Shown in pieces: positions 3,041-58,684 of a DNA stretch of 64,000 nt. The DNA lies in IMG/VR virus record IMGVR_UViG_3300045988_076381. The stretch is one strand, 5' to 3'. A program made the translations under genes and the position numbers. Each line of letters opens with the position of its first letter. The stretch's first letter is position 1. The notes beneath the pieces are model-generated. The model was not told where the DNA came from. It saw only the letters and a program-made list of their open reading frames with translations, and searched no databases. This stretch comes from a virus.

Positions 3041-5020
3041 TTAAAATATTATAGGTTTATTTTCTTCTTCATATTTCCGGAGAATTAACTGCTTTTTATA
3101 GTATTTAAGCATCTTCTCTATATCAGATTTTAAATATTCTAGAACATACTCATTAACTTCACCATCGTGAGTAAAGTGAACAATTCTTAGCTCATCAATA
3201 ATTAAATCCGGATTTTGTTTTTGAAGCATCCATGCGTAAAGAGATAATTGAAGAGTATAATGTAAGAAGTTACAATCCATTATATTATTTAAAGGGTATT
3301 TCATCATTTGATACTTCTTCTTTTTAGGATCAAAATAGGATTTTTGTTTTAATTTCTTATTAGTATTATGTGTTGGAATCATAGAATATCCAAACAAAAA
3401 AGTATGAGAAGGACTATCTACTTCAATACATTGTGTTGGAATAGTATCTACTTTTTCTACAGATTTAATATTTCTATAATGATTCTTAGACCCATTAGAT
3501 AATTCAATATTTTGATTTCTAGTTAAAAAAGGGTTTAAATCATTACTAGAAAAACAAATATCATATCCTAGAAAAATTTTACCATCACACTTCTTTTTTA
3601 CATTAAATATTGTTCCTTTTAAACCTAAACTAGATATTAATTTAATTGTATCGTCTGCTTGCCATCTTTGAGTAGTTGACATTACAAATCTTCTCCTTTC
3701 TTTATGATAGTATCCGTCAGTATCCATCAGTCCTCTAAGAAGATCTAATCGTTGTTCAAATGAAGCCCTCAGATATATATCAGGAATATGTTTATATTCT
3801 AATACTCCTAATTGTTTTAGCTTTGTACGTAAACCATAAATTGTTTTACATTCTACATTAGCTCTATCTGGATTATGTTGAGCATTTTCTCCTATATCAT
3901 ATCCTCTAGATTTAATTTCTTCCCATAATGGAGAATCTTTTCTTTGAGTAATTAGTCCACATGATTTTGAACCGTCACCAAGCCAACAACCTAATACATA
4001 TGGATCTATAGGTAAATCTGCTTTTGGGAGATTTAAAGGTTTAGCATTAAGTATTTTTGGAAGTTCTTCTGATTTAATTTTTATTCTTTTTTCTTTTCTA
4101 TTATTTATATCTTCTAATAGATAATGTAATTCCTCAGTTGTCATTACTTTATTTGTATATTTTTTGTTTTTTAAGAAGGATATAAACCAACGATGTTCGT
4201 GATCTGCTATAATACTTTCAGAATTATCAAAAGTTATTTTATAACAAGGATTATAATGTATTTCAGATTTATGTACTACTTTAGTTATATTTCCATCCTT
4301 ATCAAAAATTTCTTCTCCTTCTTTAATATCCTTTATAGTTGTCCATCCAGATTTAGTTGCAATTGGCGTGTCTAAAGGTAATCCTTTCCAGTCCCATACT
4401 TTGATATGATTTCCATTTTTAATAATTAAATCAGATTGTCCAGCAATACGTAACATTCCTTCTGGATCTATATAAGAAATTAACATTTCCGGTATAATTC
4501 CTGTATCTATATCTAAATTATGATGATTTTTATATACAGGAATAGTTCCTCCTAAATTAAATCTCTTAATCATTTTCTCAGCATGATTATAAAATCCAGT
4601 TTCTTGTTCTGCATGTATCTCAGTACCATACTCACAAGCTATCCTATTTGTTTCTCCCCAATCTTTTACATATTTATTACAAGTCTCTTCAAATACTTCT
4701 TTTGTAATACTATCTGGAATATAAGAATCATCCCATTTTTTAGTATTTAATAAAGAACTCTTTACATTAATAAAATCATTTCCCATTAACTCTTCTAACG
4801 CCTTATACTTCTTCCAAAAATCTGAATCAAACTTATTCTCGAACTCTCCAATTAAAGTAGTTACAGAAATAAATTTTTTTCCTTCACCTACTCCCTTTTT
4901 ACCTACATACACATGTTTCTCATCATTGTATGTAACATCATCGTTTTCCTTATCGACGATTAAATCATTACCATCGAAGGAGAAGTATTTAACATCTCCT
5001 TCATTCATACTCATAGTCAT
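3041..5020 (-). CDS. PD-(D/E)XK (RecB/Cas4-like) nuclease precursor containing an intein
   Basis: Extein motifs are GTEIHAEQE, SDLII..., VWDWK|...|TNKK (D-x-K-T) and HYTLQLSLYAWML (QxxxY). A 340-aa insert follows the catalytic Lys. Confidence 0.75.
   Translation of the reverse strand: MTMSMNEGDVKYFSFDGNDLIVDKENDDVTYNDEKHVYVGKKGVGEGKKFISVTTLIGEFENKFDSDFWKKYKALEELMGNDFINVKSSLLNTKKWDDSYIPDSITKEVFEETCNKYVKDWGETNRIACEYGTEIHAEQETGFYNHAEKMIKRFNLGGTIPVYKNHHNLDIDTGIIPEMLISYIDPEGMLRIAGQSDLIIKNGNHIKVWDWKGLPLDTPIATKSGWTTIKDIKEGEEIFDKDGNITKVVHKSEIHYNPCYKITFDNSESIIADHEHRWFISFLKNKKYTNKVMTTEELHYLLEDINNRKEKRIKIKSEELPKILNAKPLNLPKADLPIDPYVLGCWLGDGSKSCGLITQRKDSPLWEEIKSRGYDIGENAQHNPDRANVECKTIYGLRTKLKQLGVLEYKHIPDIYLRASFEQRLDLLRGLMDTDGYYHKERRRFVMSTTQRWQADDTIKLISSLGLKGTIFNVKKKCDGKIFLGYDICFSSNDLNPFLTRNQNIELSNGSKNHYRNIKSVEKVDTIPTQCIEVDSPSHTFLFGYSMIPTHNTNKKLKQKSYFDPKKKKYQMMKYPLNNIMDCNFLHYTLQLSLYAWMLQKQNPDLIIDELRIVHFTHDGEVNEYVLEYLKSDIEKMLKYYKKQLILRKYEEENKPIIF
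3365..4384 (-). mobile_element. intein (class-3-like) with LAGLIDADG homing endonuclease domain
   Basis: The N-terminus GLPLDTPIAT matches block A but has Gly in place of Cys1. Block B is IIADHEHRW (Trp at B12). LAGLIDADG motifs are LGCWLGDGS and LLRGLMDTDGYY. Block F is QCIEVDSPSHTFLF (Cys at F4). Block G is IPTHN|T (Thr at G5). Confidence 0.8.
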
Positions 5021-5032
5021 AATATATAAATT

Positions 5033-5743
5033 TTAATTTCCTTTCACTATAGCTAAATCTATTATAGCTCTTGCACAAGTTGTTGTATAATAAAACATTT
5101 GATCATGCGAAAGTGGGGATTCTTTTGAATAACTTATTCCAATAAATCCTCTGGGAGTTCCATCAATTTCTATTAAATAAAGAAATAATTGTTTAGCTCC
5201 ATTCTTTTTTAACATTGTATATAAAATCGGATCTGATTCTTTAATATTCTCTATATCTAATAGATTATATACTTTCTTTTCGTTAAGTTCTACATTAAAT
5301 CTAAAATTATCAGTACTTTGTTGTTGATATTGCTGTTTAATTCCCGCTACTCCAGAAGCATTTTGTTCATTCCTCATTGTGAAGTATGTAAAAAGATTTC
5401 CGCTTAATGAAGTTAAACTATTACCATATTCACAGAAAAATACCCTATCAGCTTTAAGAGTTTGTTGAAGTTTACGTAATTCATTATCTATTTTAGGGGG
5501 AATAGTTAGTGCGGTATTTACTAATTCCGTATGTTTCTCAGATCTCTCTTTCTCTCTTTGATTGAATACATTACTTATTTCAATTCTAACAGTTTCCTTT
5601 ATCGTTTCGTTTAAATATCTTTCTACATAGTTAGAAAAATATAAAGTACATAGTACAATAACTACACAAAGTACCAATTTAGAATCTTTTATAATTTTAG
5701 ATTTAATCAAACTATTTATGAGGGGTAGAATTTTGTCTATCAT
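5033..5743 (-). CDS. hypothetical membrane-anchored protein
   Basis: 236 aa with an N-terminal hydrophobic segment (LVLCVVIVLCTLYF). Confidence 0.6.
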   Translation of the reverse strand: MIDKILPLINSLIKSKIIKDSKLVLCVVIVLCTLYFSNYVERYLNETIKETVRIEISNVFNQREKERSEKHTELVNTALTIPPKIDNELRKLQQTLKADRVFFCEYGNSLTSLSGNLFTYFTMRNEQNASGVAGIKQQYQQQSTDNFRFNVELNEKKVYNLLDIENIKESDPILYTMLKKNGAKQLFLYLIEIDGTPRGFIGISYSKESPLSHDQMFYYTTTCARAIIDLAIVKGN

Positions 5744-5787
5744 TTAACTTATTTTCTATTTTTAATACACACTTATTTTGAATAGTG

Positions 5788-5795
5788 CAAATATA
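5788..5795 (-). promoter_or_regulatory. Bacteroidota-type -7 box TAtaTTTG
   Basis: The reverse complement reads tatatttg. It lies about 45 nt upstream of the 5743 start. Confidence 0.4.
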
Positions 5796-5881
5796 TTAAT
5801 AACTTGCAGTCAAAACAAGATTTATATATTTAAATTTAAAAATATAAGAAATAATATGTTTAACGCGTTAAATTATAGAGT

Positions 5882-6196
5882 ATGAAATTTAATCTTAGTA
5901 AAATAGACTTTAGTCTATTAAAAGTTCCAGATTTGGATTTAGAGGAATTTAATAATGTTATAGAGAAGTATTTAGGTAAAGAATCTGCGGAATTTCTTAA
6001 AAAGGGCGGGAAAATTTATATTAAGAAAAAGAATCGTGGAAAATTTACAGAGTCTGCTAAAAGAGCTGGACAATCTGTTCAAGAACATGCTAGATCAGTA
6101 TTAAATGATCCAAATGCTACACCTCTACAAAGGAAAAGAGCTAACTTTGCACGTAATTCTGCTAAATGGAAACATAAAGGAAAAAAGAAGAAGTAG
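5882..6196 (+). CDS. hypothetical basic protein
   Basis: 104 aa with a Lys-rich tail. It ends in TAG. Confidence 0.55.
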   Translation: MKFNLSKIDFSLLKVPDLDLEEFNNVIEKYLGKESAEFLKKGGKIYIKKKNRGKFTESAKRAGQSVQEHARSVLNDPNATPLQRKRANFARNSAKWKHKGKKKK

Positions 6197-6532
6197 GATT
6201 TATATATAATCTTATATTTAAATGATATCTAATACTTCCAATAGCAAAATCCCACCCCTTCCTGTCTGGGCGATATTATTTAAATCTTCTTCCAAACCAG
6301 AACTCTTTCTACTAATTCTCAAGAAATTCAATATTTTACATCTAAAGAATCCGTATATAAAGAAATGATTCAATCTAATCCAAAATTTGATGCTGAAGTT
6401 GATTTGGATAATATAAAACGAAGGGTTCTTTCATAAGAATTTAATAAAGAGTAGGAATATTATATATAATAAACCTTCAGGAATAATGTCTAATATTATA
6501 TAATAATATAAAAACAAGTAATATATAAATAA

Positions 6533-6979
6533 ATGAGCACTGATTATTTAAATGAGGATAAAATAATAGCATTATTAAAAAAGACTCAAGCAATGGTTGC
6601 CGGAACAGCCAATGTTTCAAGTGGAACACTACAAACAATCTTTTATAATCACGAATATATAAATAACGTTACTGCTTCTATAATCTCTAATTCAGATGAT
6701 AAAGGGATAAGAATAACAGTAGGATATAAAAACTCTACTTTAGCTTCTAGATATAAAAATTTATTATGTATAACTCCTTTTCTATCAGAGAATGTAAATG
6801 TCTCGGATGAAAATTATCTATCTACAACATTTAAATCTGCAATAAGTGGAAGTACTGTCGTCTCTTATTATATATATATTTATGATACAAATAATGGAGC
6901 AAATCTTAAACAAGGTAACTATATAAGCTTCTTAATTCCTAATATTAATGATTCTAATGAACTATTAAGTAACAACTAA
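6533..6979 (+). CDS. hypothetical protein
   Basis: 148-aa ORF only. Confidence 0.55.
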   Translation: MSTDYLNEDKIIALLKKTQAMVAGTANVSSGTLQTIFYNHEYINNVTASIISNSDDKGIRITVGYKNSTLASRYKNLLCITPFLSENVNVSDENYLSTTFKSAISGSTVVSYYIYIYDTNNGANLKQGNYISFLIPNINDSNELLSNN

Positions 6980-6992
6980 ATAATATTTAACT

Positions 6993-7217
6993 ATGAAAAA
7001 TTTTTGGAATAAAGTAAAGGGATTCTTTTATAAAATCCTAAATTATAAAGCTGTTAAGGTTATTATCTCAGTTTTATTATCTGCCGGATTAACTTATTTA
7101 TTTAAATCTGCATTAGTATTTTTCTGCTTCTTAGTATTATGGTATTTATTATATATCTTAATAGATAAGTGGGTAAAGAAAAATGACAATGAGGAATTAA
7201 ATAAATTACATATTTAA
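6993..7217 (+). CDS. small membrane protein
   Basis: 74 aa with two hydrophobic stretches. Confidence 0.5.
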   Translation: MKNFWNKVKGFFYKILNYKAVKVIISVLLSAGLTYLFKSALVFFCFLVLWYLLYILIDKWVKKNDNEELNKLHI

Positions 7218-7231
7218 ATTTTATATATAAA

Positions 7232-7267
7232 AAAATACCCTATAACAATTAAGTTATAGGGTATTTT
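7232..7267. terminator. bidirectional stem-loop terminator between convergent genes
   Basis: Perfect 15-bp stem aaaataccctataac / gttatagggtatttt with a 6-nt loop, flanked by A and T runs. Confidence 0.7.
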
Positions 7268-7308
7268 CATTTAACATTATTAACACATAAATAAACACGC
7301 AAAGAAGA

Positions 7309-7938
7309 CTACTTGCTTATATTTTCAATCATCTCCTTAATAAAATTAAGGGATTTAAGATAATCGTCATTTGTTATATATTCTATATCAGAACTTTTTA
7401 ACATTTCCTTTACCATCTCTCCGAAATTAGAAAATAACTCATTTATATCAGGACTAGTACATTTAACCTGATCTATCGGTAATTTATTACTAGCTATAGG
7501 TGCTCCGATAGTAATCCCAACTTTAGCATAATCTGGAATTTTATCTAAATCAGGATTATTTAATTTATTTTCTAACTCATCTAAAGAATCTTCTTCTTCG
7601 TTAGGAATTTTATTTAAAGTTCTATCTAATTTCTCATCGATAAGATTTAACGATGTCTCTATATCAATTCCATCATAGTCTTCTTCTCTATGGAAGTTAT
7701 CTAACTTAGATAATATCACTTTAAGTCTATCCTCAATCATATCAAAATAATCAGAGAAGCTCTTATTCATTTCTAATAGTTCTCTTAAATTCTTTTTATT
7801 CTCACAATCTCCTTCATTAAAATACTGAATAATTTGAACTAATTTCTCAATTCCGATTTTAGCATTATTCATTACATCCATCATAGAAGCATTTATACAT
7901 TCTAACTCCTTATCACTAATAAGTTTTTCCATAATCAT
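7309..7938 (-). CDS. hypothetical acidic protein
   Basis: 209-aa ORF only. Confidence 0.6.
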   Translation of the reverse strand: MIMEKLISDKELECINASMMDVMNNAKIGIEKLVQIIQYFNEGDCENKKNLRELLEMNKSFSDYFDMIEDRLKVILSKLDNFHREEDYDGIDIETSLNLIDEKLDRTLNKIPNEEEDSLDELENKLNNPDLDKIPDYAKVGITIGAPIASNKLPIDQVKCTSPDINELFSNFGEMVKEMLKSSDIEYITNDDYLKSLNFIKEMIENISK

Positions 7939-7957
7939 ATTTTTAATTTAACATATA

Positions 7958-7965
7958 CAAATATA
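7958..7965 (-). promoter_or_regulatory. -7 box TAtaTTTG
   Basis: The reverse complement reads tatatttg. It lies about 20 nt upstream of the 7938 start. Confidence 0.4.
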
Positions 7966-13628: not shown

Positions 13629-13701
13629 GGTCCCATAGCGTAAAGGTTAACGCAAAACACTCATAATGTTGAGATTCTAGGTTCAAGTCCTAGTGGGACC
13701 A
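13629..13701 (+). tRNA. trnM: tRNA, anticodon CAT (Met / fMet / Ile2 not distinguished)
   Basis: Hand-folded cloverleaf. Acceptor ggtccca/tgggacc, D stem gcgt/acgc, anticodon loop cTCATAa, T arm ctagg-ttcaagt-cctag. Confidence 0.8.
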
Positions 13702-13824
13702 CGATATTGATTTTCAGGATTTCTGAGGTTTAGAATTTCTGGATTAATGTTTTTTGTAATTTTTTTCATGATCAGTGTTTAACATTAGCAACATTTAATG
13801 AGATGTGATATCTCCTTCCTTATT

Positions 13825-13849
13825 AAGGAGAGTTAATACTCTCCTTTTT
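13825..13849 (+). terminator. stem-loop terminator
   Basis: aaggagag-ttaata-ctctcctt followed by ttt. Confidence 0.55.
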
Positions 13850-13965
13850 AAATTTGTTTATTATGAGAAAGATAGATATAAAATACATAATGACAATAAT
13901 AGGAATATTTATATTTCTATTATTATTATCTTCATTAGAATCAATCATTAATTCTATTTAAATAA

Positions 13966-14039
13966 GAGCGAATATCCAAATTGGTTAAGGGAATAGTCTG
14001 CAAAACTATATTGTGAGAGTTCGAATCTCTCTTCGCTCT
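13966..14039 (+). tRNA. trnC: tRNA-Cys (GCA)
   Basis: Acceptor gagcgaa/ttcgctc, anticodon arm atagt-ctGCAaa-actat, T arm gagag-ttcgaat-ctctc. Confidence 0.8.
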
Positions 14040-14156
14040 CATTAAATATTATATTTAAAAGGTTATATTCGGAAATATATAAGAATGATATCTTTTAAAT
14101 ACTTTAAAATTATATTAATTAAAATAAATAAAAATAATCTTTTAAATATAATAATT

Positions 14157-14426
14157 ATGAAGATCGTGATTAATAGATCCGGAATTGGATTAAATCTATC
14201 TCTACCAGCTATAGAGTATTTAATTAAATATAAAGTAATTAAGTCTCCATTAGATATGAGAAATATTAATAGGAGTAGCCCAAGATTGGTAAGATGTATC
14301 GAAGTATTAGGAGATAACGCATCTTTAGATATGTTAGAAACGATAACAGTTAGAGATGATTTTAAATATAAAATCTCTGAAATCCAAATAGGTAACATCC
14401 ATAGAGAAATTATCCTCATGGAGTAA
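14157..14426 (+). CDS. hypothetical protein embedded in the tRNA cluster
   Basis: ORF 14085..14426. The internal start MKIVINRSGIGLN... at 14157 is more plausible. Confidence 0.45.
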   Translation: MKIVINRSGIGLNLSLPAIEYLIKYKVIKSPLDMRNINRSSPRLVRCIEVLGDNASLDMLETITVRDDFKYKISEIQIGNIHREIILME

Positions 14427-14594
14427 GATATTTACATATGTAAATCTAATTAGTGTACAATAATTAGATATTCCAAGCTCTACTGGTTACAGAGTATAAA
14501 TAAACCTAGATTTTTAGATTTCCAAATTGACCTAAAATCTAATATCTTAGGATTAGATATAAAATAAGCGTGGAATACTTATTGTTAAATCAAC

Positions 14595-14664
14595 TTCTTA
14601 GTAGTTTAACTGGTGAAAATGTCATATACAGTAGGAAATATTAGTTCGAATCCAATCTAAGAAG
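14595..14664 (+). tRNA. aberrant tRNA-like sequence (anticodon arm not foldable)
   Basis: It has a 7-bp acceptor ttcttag/ctaagaa, a D arm gttt/aaat and a T arm attag-ttcgaat-ccaat. I could not form a 5-bp anticodon stem. Confidence 0.3.
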
Positions 14665-14824
14665 TGATAAAGAAACTCATATAATTCATATCTTAATATT
14701 AACCCGAAAAAAGGGCAACAGTAGGGTTGGGGTGGGTTCAGTGCCCTTGAGATAGTATCAAAATCAGCAATAATGCAGATGAGCTGTAACCACCCCTTTT
14801 ATTAATAATTTTGTTTATATTCTA

Positions 14825-14896
14825 TGCGAGATAGTGTAAAGGTAACATCCTAGGCTCATAACCTAGAGGATGGTGGTTCGAATCCATCTCTCGCTA
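14825..14896 (+). tRNA. trnM: tRNA, anticodon CAT (second copy, 1:72 mismatch)
   Basis: Acceptor tgcgaga/tctcgct with a T:T mismatch at 1:72, anticodon arm ctagg-ctCATaa-cctag, T arm ggtgg-ttcgaat-ccatc. Confidence 0.75.
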
Positions 14897-15132
14897 CTAT
14901 ATAATAGACTTCAGATATTTAACGCGGAATATAGAAGTTTGTTATATTTTATAATTATGCATGCTAATTATAAATCCCAACTCATCCTATGTCTAAGGGG
15001 AGTATAAATTAAAAGCAGATCCATCTTTTTGAGTTTGTATTGGTAATGAGAATAACTCTATAACTTAGAAATGTTATAAAACTTTCTTGAATTTAAGATA
15101 TAAGGTTTGGGAACTTACATCATTAAATTAAC

Positions 15133-15207
15133 TCCTCAGTAGCTCAGTTGGCTAGAGCAGCGGACCGTTAATCCGTAGGATCGTAGGTTCAAGTCCTACC
15201 TGAGGAG
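15133..15207 (+). tRNA. trnN: tRNA-Asn (GTT)
   Basis: Acceptor tcctcag/ctgagga, D arm gctc/gagc, anticodon arm gcgga-ccGTTaa-tccgt, T arm gtagg-ttcaagt-cctac. C at position 33 and a 6-nt variable loop are atypical. Confidence 0.7.
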
Positions 15208-15651
15208 CATAATAAAGAGTGTAGTACTAGTGTAGGACTCAACGTAACTTATAGGTTTTGTATTGTACATATAAATTTAGTCCTATTGGGTGTCGTATAA
15301 CCCAACTTAGCTATCGAGTACGGTTAATGATAGCATTTTTATCGAACTTTCATAAAAATAATTATATGAGAAACAAGCATTATTTCCTAATAGATTAATC
15401 TGATAAACCGTATATTGGAGTTGATACACTTATAATTGTCTAATGCAGCTTCGTATTATAAGAAGCAAGTCAATATAAGAAATCAGTTCAGAATAATGTA
15501 TTGTATTCGACGTGGGATTTAAAATTGTATTTATGTGATAGATGTATAGAGAGAAGATTAAGACGGAAAATATCTGGAGAAGATCTAATTCCAAATGATC
15601 CTGTTAATAATTTATATATACAAATATGTCTAGATTTATAATTTATTAATT

Positions 15652-16035
15652 ATGAAAAAGAGAGAACTCCCAAAAGAAGTAAAGAGATGGATTAAATTTT
15701 TTATAAAAACTAATGCTTATTATAATTTTGATTGGGCATTTATGTTAGATGTAGAAAAAGAGAAATTAACTCAATGTATTAAATTTTTTACTGATAACGG
15801 ATGTCATATTAATAATTCCAGAATAATTTCGAAGATGCAATTGGCTGTGAGATTATTAGATATTGCTAGGGATGAGGATTTAGATTTTAAAGGTTATGTA
15901 AATACTAAGAATATAAATAGATTTATTTCTATAGATAAATATGATATTGATATTCTCCCAACTCTTCGAACTGAAAAAGCGTGGTATTTATATAATAAAT
16001 TAAGATATTATTATATGAAAGAATGGTGGGATTAA
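15652..16035 (+). CDS. hypothetical protein
   Basis: 127-aa ORF between tRNA genes. Confidence 0.55.
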   Translation: MKKRELPKEVKRWIKFFIKTNAYYNFDWAFMLDVEKEKLTQCIKFFTDNGCHINNSRIISKMQLAVRLLDIARDEDLDFKGYVNTKNINRFISIDKYDIDILPTLRTEKAWYLYNKLRYYYMKEWWD

Positions 16036-16044
16036 ATATATTAT

Positions 16045-16130
16045 GCTAGAATGGTGAAATTGACAGACACTCAGGACTTAAAATTCTGTGGATAGTAATA
16101 TCCGTGTGGGTTTGAATCCCACTTCTAGTA
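16045..16130 (+). tRNA. trnL: tRNA-Leu (TAA), type II with long variable arm
   Basis: Acceptor gctagaa/ttctagt, anticodon arm cagga-ctTAAaa-ttctg, variable arm tggatagtaatatccgt, T arm gtggg-tttgaat-cccac. Confidence 0.8.
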
Positions 16131-16422
16131 CTATCTAGATGTAGCAAAATCAGTGAAGTTAAATACAGAAATACGCTTCGTAAGAGAACCTGTAGTCCTT
16201 AAAGGATAGTGGTGACACTGAGCCAATCTATTTATATAGAAGGTGAGATTCCAAAAACTACAATATTTATAGGGAATCAATCATATAAGAAATTATATGA
16301 AATCTCTGATAATCTATAGTGCCTTATAGAAAAACAGGGGATGAAGTTAAGGCACAAACTTCATTGGGATATATTCCCGGCGAAAGAGATTTTATATATC
16401 TCTGGATCTGATTATTTAATAG

Positions 16423-16485
16423 TACTTTGTGCATCGGATGCACTCCGAGGGATGTGAGGTTAAGGTTCGACTCCTTACAAAGTGC
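16423..16485 (+). tRNA. truncated tRNA-like element (acceptor + T arm only)
   Basis: Acceptor tactttg/caaagtg and T arm taagg-ttcgact-cctta. It is only about 63 nt. The interior holds the palindrome tgcatc-g-gatgca and has no anticodon arm. Confidence 0.25.
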
Positions 16486-16515
16486 CTAAGTAGTAATTAT
16501 TTAAATATTCATATT

Positions 16516-17415
16516 ATGGAAATTAGAAATGAGAATAAAGTATTTTTTGGAGAGAGTGGTATTACTTCTACTTCTGCTACATATTTATGTAACATTGCTA
16601 GGGAGTTATTAAAAGATATAGAATCATCTTTAAATAATATCTCCTTCATTACTGAGGAAGTAACACTCTTTGGATCTGAGAATAAGATTAGAACTAAAGA
16701 AGGATATAATTTATCCGAACTATCTGATCTAGATTCTAAACTTACTAAAGCTGCACAACTAAAAGCATTTATAGCATGGATGAGTGAAGGAATCAAAGCA
16801 AAAGATGTGGAAAGTGAGAAACTTAGAGAATATACTTTATCTGATTTTATAAAGGATTTCCCTGAATATGTAGTACAGAGGTCTAAAGATTCTACACTAG
16901 ATCCTAATTATGGACTTGGGAAATTAGATGTTTCAGAACGGGTTAAATATCTCTTCTCAGAAGCTTTAACTTCTTCAATTGGGAAATATATTCATAATAA
17001 TGGTGCTTTAAGAAAAGCTTATAGCGAGCTTTTAAATATTGCACATAACAAAGTGAATATAACCACAGAAGCAAAAGATTCTATAGTTGTAGTCACTAAT
17101 AAAATCCCAAGTGTGGATACTAAAAAAGTAGAAAAGATTATGCTTAAATATCAAGATTTACGAAGAGAGAATGAGAAGGTTCTGAACTCTTTGAAATCTA
17201 AGATAAAAAGTTATGATCATGAATATCAAATATATCTTACTCTTGAAGATAAAGCAGCTTCAGAGTCGTATAATGAAAAGATGGAAGTAGTACGTTCAAA
17301 ATATAATGAATATGTATTAAATAAGAGATCGGAAATTGAGAAACTTAAAATCATCATCCCAGATGGTTTAAGGAGTATTTATAACGATCTTCATACCATC
17401 TCAAAAGAAAAATAA
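16516..17415 (+). CDS. hypothetical coiled-coil-rich protein
   Basis: ORF 16429..17415 trimmed to MEIRNENKV..., because its first 29 codons overlap the tRNA-like element. Confidence 0.6.
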   Translation: MEIRNENKVFFGESGITSTSATYLCNIARELLKDIESSLNNISFITEEVTLFGSENKIRTKEGYNLSELSDLDSKLTKAAQLKAFIAWMSEGIKAKDVESEKLREYTLSDFIKDFPEYVVQRSKDSTLDPNYGLGKLDVSERVKYLFSEALTSSIGKYIHNNGALRKAYSELLNIAHNKVNITTEAKDSIVVVTNKIPSVDTKKVEKIMLKYQDLRRENEKVLNSLKSKIKSYDHEYQIYLTLEDKAASESYNEKMEVVRSKYNEYVLNKRSEIEKLKIIIPDGLRSIYNDLHTISKEK

Positions 17416-17693
17416 ATAAAGTAGGTAATACTTAAATCCATTTGGATGGAGGTATTTTTATATGTATAGATTATATATATAATAAAATTTAGCTAAATAA
17501 TATAGACGATAATATAAACTATTAATGCGAAAGAATCCTCAAAAGATGTTTTTATTTAAATAAATATACTTATTTAAATATAAACTATACTCCTCTTTCT
17601 GTCTTAACCTTAGTCCTTGAGAGGATTCTTGCCCTTGACATATTCTTTGGCTGTATTTATATAATCTATACATAACTATTTTTAATAAACATT

Positions 17694-17764
17694 TGTCCTA
17701 TAGTATAATGGTAATACATCTGGTTTTGGTCCAGAGAATTGAGGTTCAAATCCTCGTAGGACAA
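17694..17764 (+). tRNA. trnQ: tRNA-Gln (TTG)
   Basis: Acceptor tgtccta/taggaca, D arm gtat/atac, anticodon arm tctgg-ttTTGgt-ccaga, T arm tgagg-ttcaaat-cctcg. Confidence 0.8.
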
Positions 17765-18147
17765 CAATTCTATAATGGGAATTTTTAGATTGATTATTTC
17801 TTATAGAAAAGTCTGGACAAATTTTGTTTGGACTTTTCTTTTCATTCAATAGATATTGAAAAATTCGAAAACATATGATAAATTCTCCAAATAGTTATTT
17901 AACTGAATATTATATAAATAAAGTTTTGTTTATATAACTCTTTAAAAGACTGTAAAATATTAAAATTTCAAAACTAAACGGATTCTATGGCTTATAAGTA
18001 GAATACCCCTTTCTGTCTATTTTATCAAGCCTAGATACTCTAAAACTATTTTTAAGTCAACTTCCAGATATGGTATGTTTGGACTATTATAGATTTTTGG
18101 AGTTCTAGGCTTTTTTATTTTCATTTTTCAAACTCGGATTTTCAAGT

Positions 18148-27238: not shown

Positions 27239-28006
27239 ATGGATAAAAACAGAAAACTAGAATTTGAGGGAAAGATATTTCCTACGAATAATTGTGGCGA
27301 GCTAAAAATCATCGAATATAATGGAGCAACTAATGTAGTGGTGGAGTTTATTACTACTAAAACTATACATTCTACCACTATGAATAACATCAAGAAAGGA
27401 TCAGTATCCGATCCTATGTATCCAACAGTATATGGAATAGGATATATGGGTATAGGAGAGTATAAAAGTAGGACTGGGACTAGTCCTCAAACAACTTGCT
27501 ATAAACGATGGAAAGAAATTCTTAATCGATGCTATAATCCTAAATGTTCTGCTTATAAATTTTATGGAGGAAATGGAGCAATTATATGTGAAGAATGGAA
27601 AAATTTCCAAAATTTTGCATCTTGGTGGTATTCTAACTTTCCAAATTGGGAAGGAATTAAAATTGCTATAGATAAAGATTTATTATGTAAGGGAAATAAG
27701 GAATATTGTCCTGAATACTGCTGCTTTTTACCTCAAGAAATAAACGAAGCTCTTACTTTAAGAAAAAAGGAAAGAGGGGATTATCCAGTTGGAGTACGGT
27801 TAAAAGAAGGAAAAATTATTGCTCAAATTAATTACATGGGAAATAAAAAACATTTAGGAACATTTTCCACTGTTGAAGATGCTTTTGCAAAATATAAAAT
27901 AGAAAAGGAAAAGTGTATGAAAGAATATGCTGATAAATACAAAAATATACTTTCGGAGAGAGTGTATCAAGCATTATATAACTACACTATAAATATAGAT
28001 GATTAA
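27239..28006 (+). CDS. intron-encoded homing-endonuclease-like protein with AP2 DNA-binding domain
   Basis: YKRWKEILNRCYNP....YKFYGGNGAIICEEWKNFQNF is common in phage proteins annotated as HNH/AP2. The C-terminus YPVGVRLKEGKIIAQINYMGNKKHLGTFSTVEDAFAKY is AP2-like. Confidence 0.55.
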   Translation: MDKNRKLEFEGKIFPTNNCGELKIIEYNGATNVVVEFITTKTIHSTTMNNIKKGSVSDPMYPTVYGIGYMGIGEYKSRTGTSPQTTCYKRWKEILNRCYNPKCSAYKFYGGNGAIICEEWKNFQNFASWWYSNFPNWEGIKIAIDKDLLCKGNKEYCPEYCCFLPQEINEALTLRKKERGDYPVGVRLKEGKIIAQINYMGNKKHLGTFSTVEDAFAKYKIEKEKCMKEYADKYKNILSERVYQALYNYTINIDD

Positions 28007-28177
28007 TAGAATAAAATATACCCAAGAGTGATCTACTCCTACAGGTAATGCTGAGGATGAAAATGTACGCTGAACCGTCTGATGATTAAATCAGAATATC
28101 TTTATTTACATCTTCAATAAAGTAAGGAGGAGACTCCCGGAAGTAAGAGATAAAAAACTCTTACGATAACAAAATTG

Positions 28178-49374: not shown

Positions 49375-49461
49375 ATGGCTATAGTATTACCAACAAGTAA
49401 AATACAACCAACAGAAACTGAACCTAGGGTATTAGTTATATTCTCGAAGCCAAAGAGTGGT
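49375..49461 (+). CDS. AAA_24/Sak4-like ATPase, exon 1
   Basis: MAIVLPTSKIQPTETEPRVLVIFSKPKSG. It stops inside the Walker A motif. Confidence 0.6.
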
Positions 49462-49501
49462 AAATTTTATTAAAATATTTGGATAAGTAAAATTTTATGG
49501 A

Positions 49502-49509
49502 TATCTTTG
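49502..49509 (+). promoter_or_regulatory. -7 box TAtcTTTG inside the intron
   Basis: It lies 29 nt upstream of the ATG at 49538. Confidence 0.4.
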
Positions 49510-49537
49510 TAATTATTATTAATACAAATATATAATT

Positions 49538-50761
49538 ATGAAGAATAAAATTTTACAACTAAGTAAGAATTGTAATAGTCTAGAAATAGCTAGAATACTA
49601 TCATTATCTCTAAATGAAGTAGAAAAAGTTTTAATTGATGAATATTTTCAAAAGAAATGGAAGATATCTAAAAAGGATCTTGAAGAATTAGCTGCAAGAA
49701 TCTATAATGAATCTCCAACTCTACTATCAGATGAATTTAATATATCAGAAGTAACATTAAAAAAATATTTAGCAGATTGCAAATTGTTTAATACTAAGAA
49801 AAATGTTATCTATGTTCAAAAATCAGAGGAAGAAATTGAAAAATTAGTTCCGGATATAGTTTTAGATTATAATAACCAATTATCTATTGCACAATTAATG
49901 GTTAAATATAAGTTATCTAAAGATAAAGTTAAAGAAATTTTACATAATAATGAAATTTCAACCGGAAAAGTGACCTGTAATGAACATATATTTGATATAA
50001 TTGATTCGGAAGAAAAGGCATATTGGCTAGGGTTCCTATATGCAGATGGAGCAGTGGGGAGTGCTGATAATACTATTGAATTAGCATTAAAACTTTTGGA
50101 TTGTAAACATCTATATAAATTCAAAACTTTTATAGAAGCCAAAAGGGATATAAAAATAGAAACTAGTAAAGTTAAAAGATGCAGATTCTCTGTAAGTAGT
50201 AAACATTTAAAGTCACAACTTATTAAATTAGGTTGTACTCCTCAAAAGTCCTTAACTCTTAAATTTCCAACTAAAGAACAAGTTCCAGATGACTATATCA
50301 TTCCATTTATAAGAGGGTATTATGATGGAGATGGAATATTAACATATAGTTGTTCTACCACTGGTAGAACAGTTTTAGCTACTGGTATGTTGGGAACTGA
50401 AAATTTTTTAACTGGAGTTTTAAGTAAGTTTAAGTATCCATTACATTCTATTTTGCGTTTAGCTAGTTTGGAAGGATCAAGCGAATGTAAACAAGTAAAT
50501 TGGTCAAAAACTGATTCTGAGGAGTTTTTAAATACTATTTACAAAGATGCTACAATTTTTTTGGATAGAAAATATTTACGATACAAATATTTTAAAGACA
50601 ATGGATTTGCCGTCCAAAAAAGTAATTTTTTGGATAATGACAGAGCAATATCGGAAGAGTCTAAACAATGGATTAATCAGTATTTTAGTATAGATATTGA
50701 TTCCTTATTGCATGATAATTCCGAGATAAATATAGAAAGTAACGATTCTATATCATCGTAA
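49538..50761 (+). CDS. intron-encoded double-motif LAGLIDADG homing endonuclease
   Basis: The motifs are KAYWLGFLYADGAVG and FIRGYYDGDGIL, with N-terminal HTH-like repeats. The stop codon TAA lies within the ribozyme block tcgTAAcgcgtag. Confidence 0.8.
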   Translation: MKNKILQLSKNCNSLEIARILSLSLNEVEKVLIDEYFQKKWKISKKDLEELAARIYNESPTLLSDEFNISEVTLKKYLADCKLFNTKKNVIYVQKSEEEIEKLVPDIVLDYNNQLSIAQLMVKYKLSKDKVKEILHNNEISTGKVTCNEHIFDIIDSEEKAYWLGFLYADGAVGSADNTIELALKLLDCKHLYKFKTFIEAKRDIKIETSKVKRCRFSVSSKHLKSQLIKLGCTPQKSLTLKFPTKEQVPDDYIIPFIRGYYDGDGILTYSCSTTGRTVLATGMLGTENFLTGVLSKFKYPLHSILRLASLEGSSECKQVNWSKTDSEEFLNTIYKDATIFLDRKYLRYKYFKDNGFAVQKSNFLDNDRAISEESKQWINQYFSIDIDSLLHDNSEINIESNDSISS

Positions 50762-50939
50762 CGCGTAGGTGTTGAAACTGTATTTATTTAAATACAGAAT
50801 AAAATATACCCAAGAGTGCTCTGCTCCTATTTAATAGGATGAAAAAGTACGCTAAACTGGATCAGAAATAACTGATCGATAATCAATGAGGGAAACCTCC
50901 AGAACTAAAAGATAAAAAGCTTTTAGGATAATATAATTG

Positions 50940-54404: not shown

Positions 54405-54442
54405 CAAATATTTAATACATAGAGAAAGATTTAAAGTAATTT

Positions 54443-54946
54443 ATGAAAGATTTAAAAATCATCTGTGATATAGATGGAATAGTTGCAGATTTTATGGGAC
54501 ATTATAAAAAATGGTTTAATGTAGATACATATCCATCTAGATTACAAGAGTATGCAATATTAAAAAACGTATACAATTTAAGGAATAATAAGAAATTTTG
54601 GACAACCGTTCCTAAATTAAGAGATATTAATTTCCCTATAGTTGCTTATTGTACTAAAAGAATTAATTCTAAATCATATACTAGGGAATGGATAATTAAA
54701 AATAATCTTCCTGATAAACCTATTTATCAAATGGTATGTTACTCTGGAAATAAATCTAGATTGATCAAGGGGAAGTGTGATGTATTTATTGAAGACTCTA
54801 TAACTAATTTTATAGAGTGTAATAAATCAGGAGTGTTTACATTATTACTGACTACTCCAGAGAATAAATATTACGATACCTCTCTTAGAATCGATTCATT
54901 AAATTACCTAGATATTATAAATAAATATAATGAATATAATTATTAA
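54443..54946 (+). CDS. HAD-family 5'(3')-deoxyribonucleotidase-like protein
   Basis: The N-terminus IICDIDGIVADF fits the DxDxV..DF motif of NT5C-type nucleotidases. Confidence 0.6.
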   Translation: MKDLKIICDIDGIVADFMGHYKKWFNVDTYPSRLQEYAILKNVYNLRNNKKFWTTVPKLRDINFPIVAYCTKRINSKSYTREWIIKNNLPDKPIYQMVCYSGNKSRLIKGKCDVFIEDSITNFIECNKSGVFTLLLTTPENKYYDTSLRIDSLNYLDIINKYNEYNY

Positions 54947-54949
54947 ATT

Positions 54950-55402
54950 ATGGAACTCTCGCAATTAGAATTGGAACAATTAGAAGTTAATGAATTATTT
55001 AAACAATTAGCCACCTTTAATTGTAATCTTGGATGGTTATTATATGATATCTCTAAAACTAAATATAGATTTAATAATCAAAATTATTTAAATATTGCAT
55101 ACGGATTAGATCAATCTACAATAGTGCGATATAAATCTCCTACAGAGTATGTAGATATAATGAATTTATTTAACAGAAATTTATTTAGGAATATTATATT
55201 CGAATACTTAGATAATTATTTTGGAGAAAATTTTAGAAAATTTAAAAATATAGAAGTAATTCCAGAAGGTCAGGCATATATTCATATTACTGTTCAGAAT
55301 GAAGAATGTGAAAATAATATTAAAAAGGCTTTAAAAGAAGTACTTCCAGATTATTTTGATTACATTTTTATAGAAATTGTAGAGTATAATGAATATAATT
55401 AA
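54950..55402 (+). CDS. hypothetical protein (tandem family, member 1, divergent)
   Basis: 150 aa. Its length and C-terminal pattern are similar to the next two ORFs. Confidence 0.5.
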   Translation: MELSQLELEQLEVNELFKQLATFNCNLGWLLYDISKTKYRFNNQNYLNIAYGLDQSTIVRYKSPTEYVDIMNLFNRNLFRNIIFEYLDNYFGENFRKFKNIEVIPEGQAYIHITVQNEECENNIKKALKEVLPDYFDYIFIEIVEYNEYN

Positions 55403-55841
55403 ATATAAATCAGAATATAAAACCTTTGTAAATGATGCTATTTTATCGTATTTAAATAGTTATATCACAGATAGCGAAGAAAAAGGATTTTTAAGTCTCA
55501 TACATTATATTGCAAAAAATTATAGGTCTAAACTACAAGATATTAAATACTATATTAGAGAAGCATTTATAAATTATTCTCCAAATGGATTGGATAATAT
55601 ACTTAAATGTATATTTAGTGAAATGATTAAAGATATAATGGATAAAAAGATTTATAATACATGTAATGTATATAACAACATATCCTTTAATGCCCAATAT
55701 ATTAACTCAGAATTAAAATTATTCGTAGAACATGGTACTTATATAGATTATCATGAAGCAAAACAATTCTGTTCTGAACTAAAACGACTCTTCCCAGATA
55801 TTAATATATATAATACCATAAATAGAATAATTGAAGAATAA
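55389..55841 (+). CDS. hypothetical protein (tandem family, member 2)
   Basis: EKGFLSLIHYIAKNYRSKLQDIKYYIREAF. Confidence 0.55.
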   Translation: MNIIKYKSEYKTFVNDAILSYLNSYITDSEEKGFLSLIHYIAKNYRSKLQDIKYYIREAFINYSPNGLDNILKCIFSEMIKDIMDKKIYNTCNVYNNISFNAQYINSELKLFVEHGTYIDYHEAKQFCSELKRLFPDINIYNTINRIIEE

Positions 55842-56322
55842 AAGAAATATTTTAATTAAATTACATAATTGTAATAAAAATATGCTTATATATAAAGAAG
55901 AATATAAAGATGATTTCGATGATAATATCCTAAGATGTTTAACTTGTATCCAAACTAATAATGAGGTAAAGGGATTTTTATGTCTTATTCATTATTTAAA
56001 GGAACGATATAGAAGCAACTTATTTAATATCAAATATTATATATTGAATAACTTTAAACCAACTGCAATTGAAGAAGCCTTAGGAAAAATATATGAAAAT
56101 ACATTTATTGAAATAATTAAAGATTTATTAGATAATAAATTTAATGAAATTTGCGATTTTGTAGACTATTTTATTCTATATACTAATTCCAAGTTTGAAT
56201 TATTTATAGAATTTTATACGGATACAAGATTAATAGAAGGGAAGGAGTTTTTCGATAATTTAAAACAACTTATTCCTGATATTACTATACATAGAACTGT
56301 GAATGGAGAACTTCGGGACTGA
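55831..56322 (+). CDS. hypothetical protein (tandem family, member 3)
   Basis: VKGFLCLIHYLKERYRSNLFNIKYYILNNF. Confidence 0.55.
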   Translation: MKNKRNILIKLHNCNKNMLIYKEEYKDDFDDNILRCLTCIQTNNEVKGFLCLIHYLKERYRSNLFNIKYYILNNFKPTAIEEALGKIYENTFIEIIKDLLDNKFNEICDFVDYFILYTNSKFELFIEFYTDTRLIEGKEFFDNLKQLIPDITIHRTVNGELRD

Positions 56323-57097
56323 TTTAATATCTAGAGAAGTATTATCTAAATTTAAGATAAAAATATTATCAATAAATAGTTTAGATATAACTGATGAAGT
56401 ATATTTTTCTGATAAATATTCTAATTATATATCTAATTCTAAATTAAAACTGATAAATCCTAATGAAGGAGGATCATTTAAAACATATTTAGAAGGATTA
56501 AAATCTAAATCTACTGGATCTCTGGATTTAGGATCAGCAGTTCATGAGTTAGTTCTACAAAATGAATCATTTGAATTAAATTCTTATATCAAACCATCTG
56601 GTAAAATTGGGAAAGTTATAGAGGTTGTATTTAAATATAGAAATAAGGGATATTCCATATTAAATGCAATTCGAAAAGCTTCCGAAGAAGTTTCTTATTA
56701 CATATCTCAATTAACTGATACAAGAATATCTAATATAATCTCATCTGGATTTAAATATTATCTTTATTTATATAAAAATAAAGATATTAAATATGATAAA
56801 GAACAAATAATCTTGGATGAAAAATCTAGGGAAACTTGTATAAAATGTGTAGATTCTATTAGAAGAAATTCTGATGCAATGAATCTCCTTTCCCCAGATG
56901 AATTTTCATTAGATCAGTATTTAAATAAGAATGAGGATACTATAGTGATGGAAATAGTAGTAACCTTCCCTAACAGTACTTCCGATCCAAATGCAGAAGA
57001 AGTAAGTATTTTGTTAAAGTTAAAAGCTAAGATAGATAATTGGAATTTAAATATAGATGAGGGTTTATTAAATCTAAATGATTTAAAAACTACAGGT
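56303..57097 (+). CDS. PD-(D/E)XK nuclease (second paralog), exon 1
   Basis: GSAVHELVLQ..., ...LLNLNDLKTTG (D-x-K-T motif). The ORF stop at 57101 lies inside the intron. Confidence 0.65.
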
Positions 57098-58372
57098 AAG
57101 TAAAATTTTTTTATTGTATTTTATTTGTTTTATTTCATTAAATGTATTTAATTTGTATATTATTAAATTATACAATAAAAATACATTTATGAATAATCTA
57201 AATCAAGCTATTAGTGATTACGAACATTTATTTATAGGAATTTGTGAATTAAGTAAAAAATATAAAATTCCTAATAAAGAAATTAGAAAAGCGTTAGAAG
57301 ATAAAGGATATTATTTAGGAAAAGGAGTATCTCCAAAAAGTGTTGTGCATATTAAACTTGCAGTAGAGGAATATAAAAATATTCTTAATGCTGGTGAAGA
57401 ACCTAATATTCATCAACTGGCATTAAAGTATGATATTTCCGATACGTCTATAAAAGACAATTTAATTAGATTAAATCTTCCTGTTGTAAGATACCCTAAA
57501 AAAATCCATTTTGATGAACATGTCTTTGATGTTATAGATACTGAAGAAAAAGCATATTGGCTAGGATTTTTAACTGCTGATGGGTATATTTATAGTAGAG
57601 ATAATACATTTGGAATTAGTCTAGCTAGTATAGATAAGCATCATGTAGAAAAATATGCCACATTTCTTAAATGTCCTCAACATGTTAAATTTAAGAATAA
57701 CGAATATGCTGGAATATATAGATGTGATTTAGGAAACGCTCATGTAAAGCAAGTATTACAAAAATATGGATTTACTGCTTCTAAATCTTTTGACTGTACC
57801 TTTTTAAAAGACCAGTTTTTTGCAAATTCCGATTTAATAAGACATTATATTAGAGGATATTTTGATGGAGATGGCTGTGTCAGTTATAAAAAAAAGTATA
57901 GAAAAACAATTAATGCCACTATTTATATTCCGATAGTTTCTATAGTTGGAACAGAAGCTTTTTTACAAGAATTAAGAAATAAATCAAATTTAATTTGTCT
58001 TTTTCAGTCACAACAAAATCTATGGAATTTATATGGATCTGGAAAAAAGGCAAAAGATTTTCTTTATTACATTTATAATAACGCTACTATTTATTTAGAT
58101 AGAAAATACAATATTTATAGAAATTATATTGCCCCACACTTAGAGAAATCAAGTGTTCCGCAGTGGCCAATATCGGTGGATACTGAAATGTAAATACCGA
58201 GATAAATTCAGAGATTACGAAAGGCTCTGAATCATCGTAACGCGTAGAAGGTGAATAAATATAATCCTTCCAAGAGTGGCTGCCACCTTAAAGGGTGAAA
58301 ATGTACGCTGAACTATATCGAATAACAAGATATAGAAATAAAGGATAAAAAGCCTTTATGATAACAAAATTG
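57098..58372 (+). mobile_element. group-I-like intron carrying a LAGLIDADG endonuclease ORF
   Basis: It starts after ...acaggT and ends ...gataacaaaattG. It has the core blocks gtaacgcgtag (58237-), ccaagagtg (58270-), gtacgctgaac and gataaaaagcc. Confidence 0.75.
57189..58193 (+). CDS. intron-encoded double-motif LAGLIDADG homing endonuclease
   Basis: KAYWLGFLTADGYIY and YIRGYFDGDGCV. It is clearly a paralog of 49538..50761. The ATG at 57189 is preferred over 57114. Confidence 0.8.
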   Translation: MNNLNQAISDYEHLFIGICELSKKYKIPNKEIRKALEDKGYYLGKGVSPKSVVHIKLAVEEYKNILNAGEEPNIHQLALKYDISDTSIKDNLIRLNLPVVRYPKKIHFDEHVFDVIDTEEKAYWLGFLTADGYIYSRDNTFGISLASIDKHHVEKYATFLKCPQHVKFKNNEYAGIYRCDLGNAHVKQVLQKYGFTASKSFDCTFLKDQFFANSDLIRHYIRGYFDGDGCVSYKKKYRKTINATIYIPIVSIVGTEAFLQELRNKSNLICLFQSQQNLWNLYGSGKKAKDFLYYIYNNATIYLDRKYNIYRNYIAPHLEKSSVPQWPISVDTEM

Positions 58373-58684
58373 AAACCATGGTATTTATTCCCAGGATCTA
58401 TAGTAAAAGAAACAGGAGAATTTGTTGAAGGTTCCTTTCAACATTATCATTACTATCGCCAATTATCTATGTATTTCTGGATGCTCAAGCAATATCTAAC
58501 TTCGGAAGGATATAAATTAAACAAATCTTATTTAAATATAATCTCTGTACAAACTATTCCTAATTATTCTACAGTAGTATTTAGAATCCCAAATAAATGG
58601 TTTGTTAAAGGATTGAAGGAATTTAAAACCTTACTATCATACGCTGCTTATGCTGAATATAATAAAGAAAAAATATTATCATGA
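58373..58684 (+). CDS. PD-(D/E)XK nuclease (second paralog), exon 2
   Basis: KPWYLFPGS...HYYRQLSMYFWMLKQ (QxxxY), in frame with exon 1. Confidence 0.65.
   Translation, partial: KPWYLFPGSIVKETGEFVEGSFQHYHYYRQLSMYFWMLKQYLTSEGYKLNKSYLNIISVQTIPNYSTVVFRIPNKWFVKGLKEFKTLLSYAAYAEYNKEKILS

Follow-up and report, generated by a model that had tools for sequence, protein, structure and literature searches.

A predicted class 3 intein and a predicted group I intron interrupt one nuclease motif in two distantly related phage exonucleases

Introduction

Inteins within the catalytic motif of phage nucleases have been described before. The Cas4/RecB-like exonucleases of mycobacteriophages carry 40 inteins at one point in the PD-(D/E)XK motif (Kelley et al. 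2016, PMC5050341), and a 2025 preprint puts the total of Cas4-exonuclease inteins at 138 (bioRxiv 10.1101/2025.01.02.630785). The same preprint reports that class 3 inteins with a LAGLIDADG endonuclease are almost confined to Cas4 exonucleases and terminases, places one examined Cas4-exonuclease intein in RecB motif III (EFKT), and proposes that the inteins of Cas4 exonucleases switched in from terminase inteins. The literature thus already documents inteins in RecB motif III of phage Cas4/RecB-like exonucleases, where this allele is widespread. Here, we analyse a 64,000-nucleotide stretch of viral DNA (IMG/VR record IMGVR_UViG_3300045988_076381; hereafter the window, in which all coordinates are given) that encodes two PD-(D/E)XK exonucleases. 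One of them, nuclease A, is interrupted by an intein and the other, nuclease B, by an intron, both at the motif that bears the catalytic lysine.

Homologous enzymes interrupted at nearly the same place have a precedent: the integration points in NrdA and NrdJ lie one residue apart, by the active site (PMC2677866). Phage introns with an open reading frame (ORF) in the P1 loop, whose distal coding region runs over conserved intron sequence, are also known (PMC2677866). In the following, related viral contigs are designated L001 to L004 and L109, and homologous proteins P0001 and so on.

Results

Two optional elements at the same motif

The gene of nuclease A (3041..5020, minus strand) is a single ORF encoding a precursor of 659 aa, in which a Cas4/RecB-like exonuclease is combined with an intein. 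The N-extein (codons 1-212; 4385..5020, minus) includes D197 of motif II (4421..4441, minus) and ends at motif III, D210-W-K212. The C-extein runs from Thr+1 to the stop codon (3041..3364, minus) and includes motif IV, QLSLY (3236..3250, minus). The precursor junctions read ...IKVWDWK|GLPLDT...IPTHN|TNKK, which places the intein between Lys212 and Thr213 of the D-x-K-T motif. Its limits are set by the allele of L109, which encodes 319 aa and misses exactly 1020 nt, so that the intein corresponds to window positions 3365..4384; the extein DNA of the two alleles is 99.4% identical. The spliced product of nuclease A, once residues 213-552 (GLPLDT...IPTHN) are taken out, also has 319 aa and is 99% identical to P0121, the intein-free homologue encoded in L109. 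The intein-bearing allele and that of L109 differ at six DNA positions only, one of which changes the third position of the Lys codon that directly precedes the insertion (4385..4387; AAA vs AAG).

The spliced nuclease A matches PF12705 (PDDEXK_1) with 31.8 bits, above the cut-off of 22, and the 'exonuclease' family phrog_298 (6e-24). Residues D197, D210, K212, Q251 and Y255 are invariant among 41 homologues, which puts the intein directly after the catalytic lysine of motif III; Thr213 is nearly invariant in the same set. The AlphaFold2 (AF2) model has a predicted local distance difference test score (pLDDT) of 92 and shows the canonical three-strand sheet, with the third strand ending at K212. 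Its best matches in the PDB are Cas4 SSO0001, MGME1, the AddAB nuclease and RecE. The Pfam match, the motifs and the modelled fold together identify nuclease A as a predicted PD-(D/E)XK nuclease of the Cas4/RecB-like kind.

Nuclease B is split in two on the plus strand. Exon 1 (56303..57097; codons 1-265) ends with N-D260-L-K262-T-T-G265, encoded by ...AAT GAT TTA AAA ACT ACA GGT, so that its last codon is GGU in the transcript. Exon 2 (58373..58684) runs from K266 to the stop codon, starts with AAA CCA TGG and includes motif IV, QLSMY (58460..58474). Between them lies an insertion of 1275 nt in phase 0 (57098..58372), which follows the codon of Gly265 and is thereby three codons beyond that of Lys262. 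A mechanical list of ORFs gives 56303..57103 and 58358..58684 on either side of a LAGLIDADG ORF. When ...LKTTG is joined to KPWY..., the result is a nuclease of 368 aa. This is the length of the uninterrupted homologues P0001 to P0003, which are 88-94% identical to it. The boundaries of the insertion are fixed by the near-identical phage L004, because it has an uninterrupted junction, ACAGGT|AAACCATGG: the codon-265 flanks are the same as the exons of the window, with 150/150 nt identical to the ligated exons. L001 to L003 also lack the codon-265 insertion. The empty site of L001 is surrounded by many, mostly synonymous, differences, including GGG for GGT at codon 265.

The spliced nuclease B matches phrog_412 'exonuclease VIII' (4e-12). 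It scores 24 bits with PF12684/DUF3799, which is under the cut-off of 26, and its close homologues have this domain as a precomputed assignment. Residues D245, D260, K262, T263, Q295 and Y299 are invariant among 42 homologues. The AF2 model (pLDDT 92) is closest to PDB entries 3L0A (E 1.8e-7) and RecE 3H4R. Nuclease B is accordingly a probable PD-(D/E)XK exonuclease of the RecE/DUF3799-like kind.

We then compared the positions of the two insertions. In BLASTP, the alignment of the spliced nucleases is confined to the QLSxY helix (HYTLQLSLYAWMLQK vs HYYRQLSMYFWMLKQ, 9/15 identical), and a profile-profile comparison was thus needed. Using hhalign, the two families align over 180 columns with 17% identity and an E-value of 1.5e-4. 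The alignment pairs D197 with D245, D210-W-K212-T213 with D260-L-K262-T263, and QLSLY with QLSMY. Searches of both family profiles against PDB sequences gave only chance-level matches, which made a fold search necessary for both nucleases. The AF2 models have the same layout, i.e. a strand, a strand with the Asp, a strand with DxK, a loop and the QxxxY helix, and they match overlapping sets of structures (Cas4, MGME1, AddAB, RecE and 3L0A). The intein interrupts K|T, and the intron falls where N214|K215 of nuclease A aligns; the distance amounts to two aligned positions, or three codons in nuclease B. Since the hhalign columns and the layouts of the models agree, we regard the two insertion points as lying in equivalent regions; both would lie where the beta-strand with the (D/E)-x-K motif has its C-terminal end. 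The hhalign probability of only 51% counts against this relationship. The families that the proteins match also differ (PF12705 and phrog_298 for A, PF12684 and phrog_412 for B). Taken together, sequence comparisons indicate that A and B are homologous at the superfamily level, as distant PD-(D/E)XK relatives and not close paralogs.

These results bear on an earlier, sequence-only reading of the window. It had placed the intein directly after the catalytic lysine of A and a group-I-like intron three codons past the equivalent lysine of B, in the same D-x-K-T motif and upstream of a shared QLSxY motif, and the empty alleles and alignments bear this out. It had also described one element as acting on protein and the other on RNA, which agrees with the class 3 signature and the covarying group I core presented below. 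Its description of the two nucleases as paralogs holds for superfamily ancestry, and is too strong given their 17% identity and separate Pfam and PHROG families. The survey of relatives that it proposed has retrieved empty alleles for both elements (L109 for A; L001 to L004 for B).

Both elements are optional, with precisely empty alleles in relatives. The empty allele of nuclease A is represented by a cluster of 365 members, and the exact intein-bearing precursor of 659 aa is found on 41 contigs. Gene B has a second interruption site at codon 77 in some relatives. The clusters that are empty at both sites (P0001 to P0003) hold 404 member sequences together, the codon-77 intron is represented by approximately 206 (P0005, P0006, P0008 and P0009) and the codon-265 intron by 48 (P0004). 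Cluster sizes suggest that most B alleles of close relatives are empty at both sites. Both elements are thus polymorphic among near-identical phages, as expected of active or recently active homing elements. In the protein collection, the 90%-identity cluster that includes the 659-aa precursor has as its representative a 496-aa HD-GYP response regulator with no resemblance to it, and the remaining members are likewise response regulators unrelated to the precursor, so that the clustering seems to be at fault. A truncated homologue of nuclease A, P0125, was considered as a further intron allele and rejected, since it has a frameshift and no intron core.

Taking these observations together, we consider it very likely that two PD-(D/E)XK exonucleases of one genome, themselves only distantly related, have each been invaded at the same catalytic motif by a separate, optional homing element, the two being independent of each other.

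Relation between the two elements

Why should both elements be in the same motif? Homing elements have a general bias towards invariant motifs, and this would place the intein and the intron together with no link between them. The co-location could instead be causal, if one endonuclease lineage, or the cross-recognition of a DNA word shared at the Lys-Thr codons, had seeded both sites. Such a process would be akin to the 'extein switching' that has been suggested for the inteins of terminases and Cas4; for class 3 inteins, a switch from one nucleotide-binding motif to another has been proposed (bioRxiv 10.1101/2025.01.02.630785). The best PHROG matches of the intein are indeed intein-bearing terminase families, in agreement with the proposed switch from terminases, and the two sites have the 7-mer AAA ACT A in common at the Lys-Thr codons. 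However, this 7-mer match is not significant at the 27.5% G+C of the window, and the insertion points are three codons apart. The endonucleases of the intein and of the intron have no significant similarity beyond the fold (best BLASTP E 0.02). Moreover, the intron family sits in many genes, unrelated ones among them, including in the window those of a helicase and an SbcD-like exonuclease, and a related intron occupies another motif of gene B. A causal link therefore seems highly improbable to us.

Since the endonucleases are unrelated and a related intron is found at another motif of B, the co-location is best explained by the tendency, already known, of homing elements to insert in conserved motifs, and not by special convergence. 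There are four or five conserved motifs per protein, and by our own estimate, which is not a computed value, two elements would share a motif by chance about one time in four or five. The statement in the sequence-only reading that the elements had converged on these codons hence claims more than the data show.

The intron of nuclease B

The core of the predicted ribozyme is at the 3' end of the insertion (58129..58372, plus), starting with the guide UUGCC (58129..58133) and ending with the terminal G (58372). The last base of the exon is U57097 and the last base of the intron G58372. From the 5' side, the order is guide, P2 (58136-41/58151-56), P3 (58163-68/58278-83), J3/4 AAUA, P4 (58173-77/58196-200), P5 (58181-83/58190-92), P4', P6 (58207-13/58225-31) and J6/7 UCAUCGUAAC. 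These are followed by P7 GCGUA (58242-46/58304-08), P7.1 (58247-51/58266-70), CCAAGAGU, P3', P8 (58284-88/58293-97), J8/7 AAAAUG and P7' UACGC. The end of the core consists of P9 (58313-19/58329-35), P9.1 (58338-44/58353-59) with the loop GAUAAAAAG, GAUAAC... and the final G. In P1, which we derived by hand, the exon GGU and two intron bases pair with the guide (GGU|AA with UUGCC). The three insertion sites known for the family are all after GGU, and the intron bases covary with the guide: GGU|AA-UUGCC, GGU|GC-GUGCC and GGU|GA-UUGCC. The terminal G is present in all aligned copies with a known or inferred downstream exon.

Rfam model RF00028 gave no match to the intron at E <= 10, whether we used the whole intron, the 266-nt core with relaxed filters or an ORF-less relative, and an Rfam scan of the whole window made no group I call for this family, which we call B-type. 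Given this silence, we tested the architecture directly. Sequences similar to the final ~250 nt of the intron are present at four further places of the window, as well as in insertions of L001 and L004. A conserved word of 14 nt retrieved 104 stretches in viral contigs, and two further signatures used as a filter left 81 candidate copies, comprising those loci, earlier loci and the window. These were trimmed and freed of duplicates, yielding 39 distinct sequences. The covariation test was made on an alignment of 36 copies. In this alignment, 86% of the cells pair, compared with 66% in shuffled alignments and 29-42% when partners are slid. Both sides change in 44 of the 56 pairs, and none of 500 shuffles reaches any of the five measures. 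The P3 pseudoknot helix has changes on both sides in all six pairs, with 82% of cells paired. Pairing is also frequent in P4 (84%), P6 (93%), P7.1 (100%), P8 (92%) and P9.1 (100%). Covariation thus supports P3, P4, P5, P6, P7.1, P8, P9 and P9.1. When the intron of the window is folded alone, the minimum free energy structure includes every helix except the pseudoknotted P7 (z = -4.1).

Several observations weigh against a group I assignment. Besides the lack of an Rfam match, P7 pairs in 100% of the cells and is invariant in sequence in the 36-copy alignment, which is partly due to the inclusion of P7 in the search pattern. The only compensatory change seen in this helix, GCGCA/UGCGC, is in the copy on the minus strand of the window (~520..244). 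P2 has little support in the MAFFT alignment, where 41% of its cells pair, though it is visible by eye. P1 has only 5 bp, and no convincing P10 was found in the intron. The sequence of P7 and the lengthened J6/7 would defeat the Rfam model. We conclude from the splice ends and from a core whose P4-P6 and P3-P8 domains are linked through a P3/P7 pseudoknot that the insertion is, on sequence criteria, a divergent group I intron.

The intron is probably IA-like. Introns of subgroup IA have extra P7.1/P7.2 pairings between P7 and P3', and B-type introns have a covarying hairpin, with an optional inner hairpin, exactly at this place. The 'R' and 'S' elements run in parallel in the two families of the window: UCAUCG...GACUA and GAUAUAGUC in a canonical intron (61132..61433, see below), UCAUCGUAAC-GCGUA and AAAAUG-UACGC in the intron of B.

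The intron encodes a putative double-motif LAGLIDADG homing endonuclease (57189..58193, plus), starting at the ATG at 57189 or possibly at a TTG upstream (57114). Its motifs are YWLGFLTADGY (57555..57587, plus) and YIRGYFDGDGC (57846..57878, plus), and it matches PF14528 (1.2e-10, 42 bits) and phrog_4645 (4e-44). The gene is placed between the 5' splice site and the guide, i.e. in the loop of P1, with its final ~22 codons extending across the guide and P2-P5. Splicing of the RNA would restore ...DLKTTG-KPWY..., and both this reaction and the activity of the endonuclease are predicted from these features.

Could gene B be expressed without splicing? A free-standing homing endonuclease gene might have fractured it into two polypeptides that assemble, and fractured phage genes are known (PMC2677866). 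The absence of an Rfam intron call in gene B and the ATG-started downstream ORF at 58358 in the mechanical list would fit this. Yet this ATG is inside the conserved 3' tail of the intron (Y-GAUAAC...) and is missing from most members of the family. The 244 nt before exon 2 are a conserved, covarying core of the group I type, and the insertion is phase-exact with ends U and G. We thus find a fractured, unspliced gene highly improbable, and retain the intron.

The intein of nuclease A

The predicted intein (3365..4384, minus) has 340 aa, from Gly1 to Thr-His-Asn, and includes a putative LAGLIDADG homing endonuclease domain. Class 3 inteins are defined by the lack of a nucleophile at the first position, a WCT triplet and Thr or Ser at position +1 (PMC2807308). 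In the window intein, the first residue is Gly, which is neither Cys, Ser nor Thr, is not nucleophilic and is unable to initiate the standard reaction. The triplet consists of the Trp of block B (HEHRW in ADHEHRW; 4187..4207, minus), the Cys at position 4 of block F (TQCIEV in PTQCIEV; 3419..3439, minus) and the Thr at position 5 of block G (THN|T; 3362..3379, minus), followed by Thr+1. Together with the C-terminal His-Asn, these residues assign it, as judged from sequence, to class 3.

The same triplet and Thr+1 are found in the mini-inteins of P0135 and P0138, which are inserted at the same site and both start with Gly. The mini-intein of P0138 matches the solved DnaB inteins 6RIX, 6RIY and 6BS8, which we take to be published class 3 structures, with E-values from 2e-16 to 9e-15. 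Its Trp, Cys and Thr align to the same residues in 6RIX and 6BS8. A search of databases with the intein gave 943 proteins, and 104 of the 120 listed have both junctions. Among these listed matches, Gly1 is present in 104/104, the WCT triplet in 103/104, the position after D-[YWFH]-K in 103/104 and that before T-N/D in 104/104.

The core of the endonuclease domain (3710..3994, minus) has the motifs LGCWLGDGS and LLRGLMDTDGY, both with their acidic residues. The isolated intein scores 23.4 bits with PF14528 (cut-off 22.5) and 21.9 bits with PF05204 (cut-off 21.1). With two motifs, acidic residues and a PF14528 match, the intein domain and the intron ORF both qualify as predicted LAGLIDADG endonucleases.

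If the intein works as characterised class 3 inteins do, its block F Cys would start splicing by attacking the N-terminal junction, after which the chain would be transferred to Thr+1 and the Asn would cyclise. The predicted endonuclease domain would cleave alleles that lack the intein, so that the element is copied into them. It is very unlikely that the intein is dead and nuclease A a pseudogene or an unspliced fusion, as the lack of Cys, Ser or Thr at position 1 might suggest, because Gly1, which occurs in 104/104 of the listed homologues with both junctions, is conserved along with the WCT triplet, Thr+1 and His-Asn, a functional class 3 signature (PMC2807308), and the reading frame is intact over 659 codons in an exact precursor found on 41 contigs.

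Other introns in the window, its relatives and public phages

B-type introns are found in several other places. In L004 (2594..4000), one of them splits nuclease B at codon 77, in the invariant motif SAVHE (G77|S-A-V-H81), and encodes a 402-aa protein with a zinc-ribbon/DUF723 and a Vsr-like C-terminus; the codon-265 site is empty in this phage. In the window, a B-type intron interrupts the gene of the DnaB-like helicase (~49375..50939). Its LAGLIDADG gene (49538..50761, phrog_4645) encodes a protein 33% identical to the endonuclease of the B intron. A further core follows an HNH endonuclease ORF (27239..28006; core and ORF at ~27239..28177), and another is on the minus strand (~520..244).

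The gene of an SbcD/Mre11-like phosphoesterase has two introns of different families. The first (61132..61433) is a canonical group I intron without an ORF, which RF00028 matches with 67 bits (E 4.7e-17); it is located exactly between the His and the Asp of the GNH|D motif and absent from L001 and L003. Like the B-type family, it has an extra insertion between P7 and P3'. The gathering scan of the whole window missed this intron, though its score is above the gathering cut-off. The second intron (61569..62141), after ATGCATGGT, is B-type and retains only a remnant of a LAGLIDADG ORF. At the same site, L002 has a full LAGLIDADG ORF and L001 a 267-nt version without ORF. These three versions look like stages of gain and decay of the endonuclease.

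The B-type core matches 79-88 deposited phage genomes, for example NC_055894 cr6_1, NC_055872 cr118_1, MK250015 Lak-A1, NC_024355 Staphylococcus phage 6ec and Clostridium perfringens phages. In the public matches listed, the core lies either between annotated features or within a gene that the record names as terminase, tape measure or 'HNH endonuclease'. Public phage records thus seem to hold many unannotated introns.

The source phage

The window has a G+C content of 27.5% and carries a phage replication module. PHROG matches include a DNA polymerase, a DnaB-like helicase, a primase, exonucleases and several homing endonuclease genes. Six or seven tRNA genes (Met x2, Cys, Asn, Leu and Gln) are clustered at 13629..17765; the additional call, at 14595..14664, is made by Rfam and not by ARAGORN. 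The nearest kin are exclusively metagenomic contigs of 137-183 kb. A megablast search of the genes of nucleases A and B against 50,697 phage records gave no match. The DNA polymerase is ~34% identical to that of Sashavirus-like phages. By these sequence comparisons, the phage appears to be uncultured, with no close cultured relative.

Discussion

The preference of homing elements for conserved motifs was known, as was this intein site, and our results add no new principle. What they provide is a clean natural example, in which two distantly homologous proteins of one genome have an intein and an intron, respectively, beside the same catalytic lysine, with precisely empty alleles of both elements at hand for work on homing. 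They also affect annotation: nuclease A would otherwise be described as a fusion of 659 aa and nuclease B as three genes. One homologue, P0307, is mislabelled 'replicative DNA helicase'.

The intron family that is invisible to Rfam is the part most worth following up. Because this family escapes Rfam and is unannotated in the public records listed, the intron content of gut and Firmicutes phages is probably underestimated. More tentatively, B-type introns might form a large, unmodelled group I subclass, defined by P7 GCGUA/UACGC, the GAUAAAAAG loop, the GAUAAC tail, the placement of endonuclease genes within the P1 loop and a guide sequence that recognises little beyond a GGU glycine codon. 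On this possible but doubtful extension, the Rfam-invisible subclass would be common in crAss-like, Lak, Staphylococcus, Clostridium and Bacillus phages, and motif III of PD-(D/E)XK nucleases would be a recurrent landing pad for independent protein- and RNA-level elements.

How do these elements compare with known systems? The window intein has much in common with those of actinobacteriophage Cas4/RecB-like exonucleases, namely the host family, the insertion point in RecB motif III, (E/D)-x-K|T, the class 3 signature and the LAGLIDADG domain. Both also resemble terminase inteins. It differs from them in its host, an uncultured phage of 27.5% GC, in a motif that reads D-W-K instead of E-F-K, and in having Gly as first residue. 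The solved DnaB inteins 6RIX, 6RIY and 6BS8, taken here as class 3, align with the P0138 mini-intein in blocks A, B, F and G, including the Trp, the Cys and THN. These are mini-inteins in a helicase, whereas the intein of the window has an endonuclease domain and sits in a nuclease.

The intron of nuclease B shares with canonical RF00028 introns the order P3-P4-P5-P6-P7-(P7.1)-P3'-P8-P7'-P9, the U at the 5' splice site and the terminal G. The extra pairing between P7 and P3' may correspond to that of phage introns of subgroup IA such as T4 td and Twort. In contrast with the canonical introns, its P7 is GCGUA/UACGC and not GACUA/UAGUC, J6/7 is four bases longer, the conserved GAUAAAAAG loop and the GAUAAC tail of the B-type are new, and there is no RF00028 score. 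Compared by architecture, it is similar to the recA introns of Bacillus cereus and phage 0305phi8-36, which also have an ORF in the P1 loop that overlaps conserved intron sequence (PMC2677866), while it has another host gene and another type of endonuclease (LAGLIDADG). Its relative in L004 even encodes a Vsr-like/DUF723 protein.

The arrangement as a whole is closest to that of the fractured NrdA and NrdJ of environmental phages, where two homologous enzymes are interrupted near the same point of the active site (PMC2677866). In that case both interruptions are split inteins with endonuclease genes, whereas the window combines one intein and one intron in a single genome.

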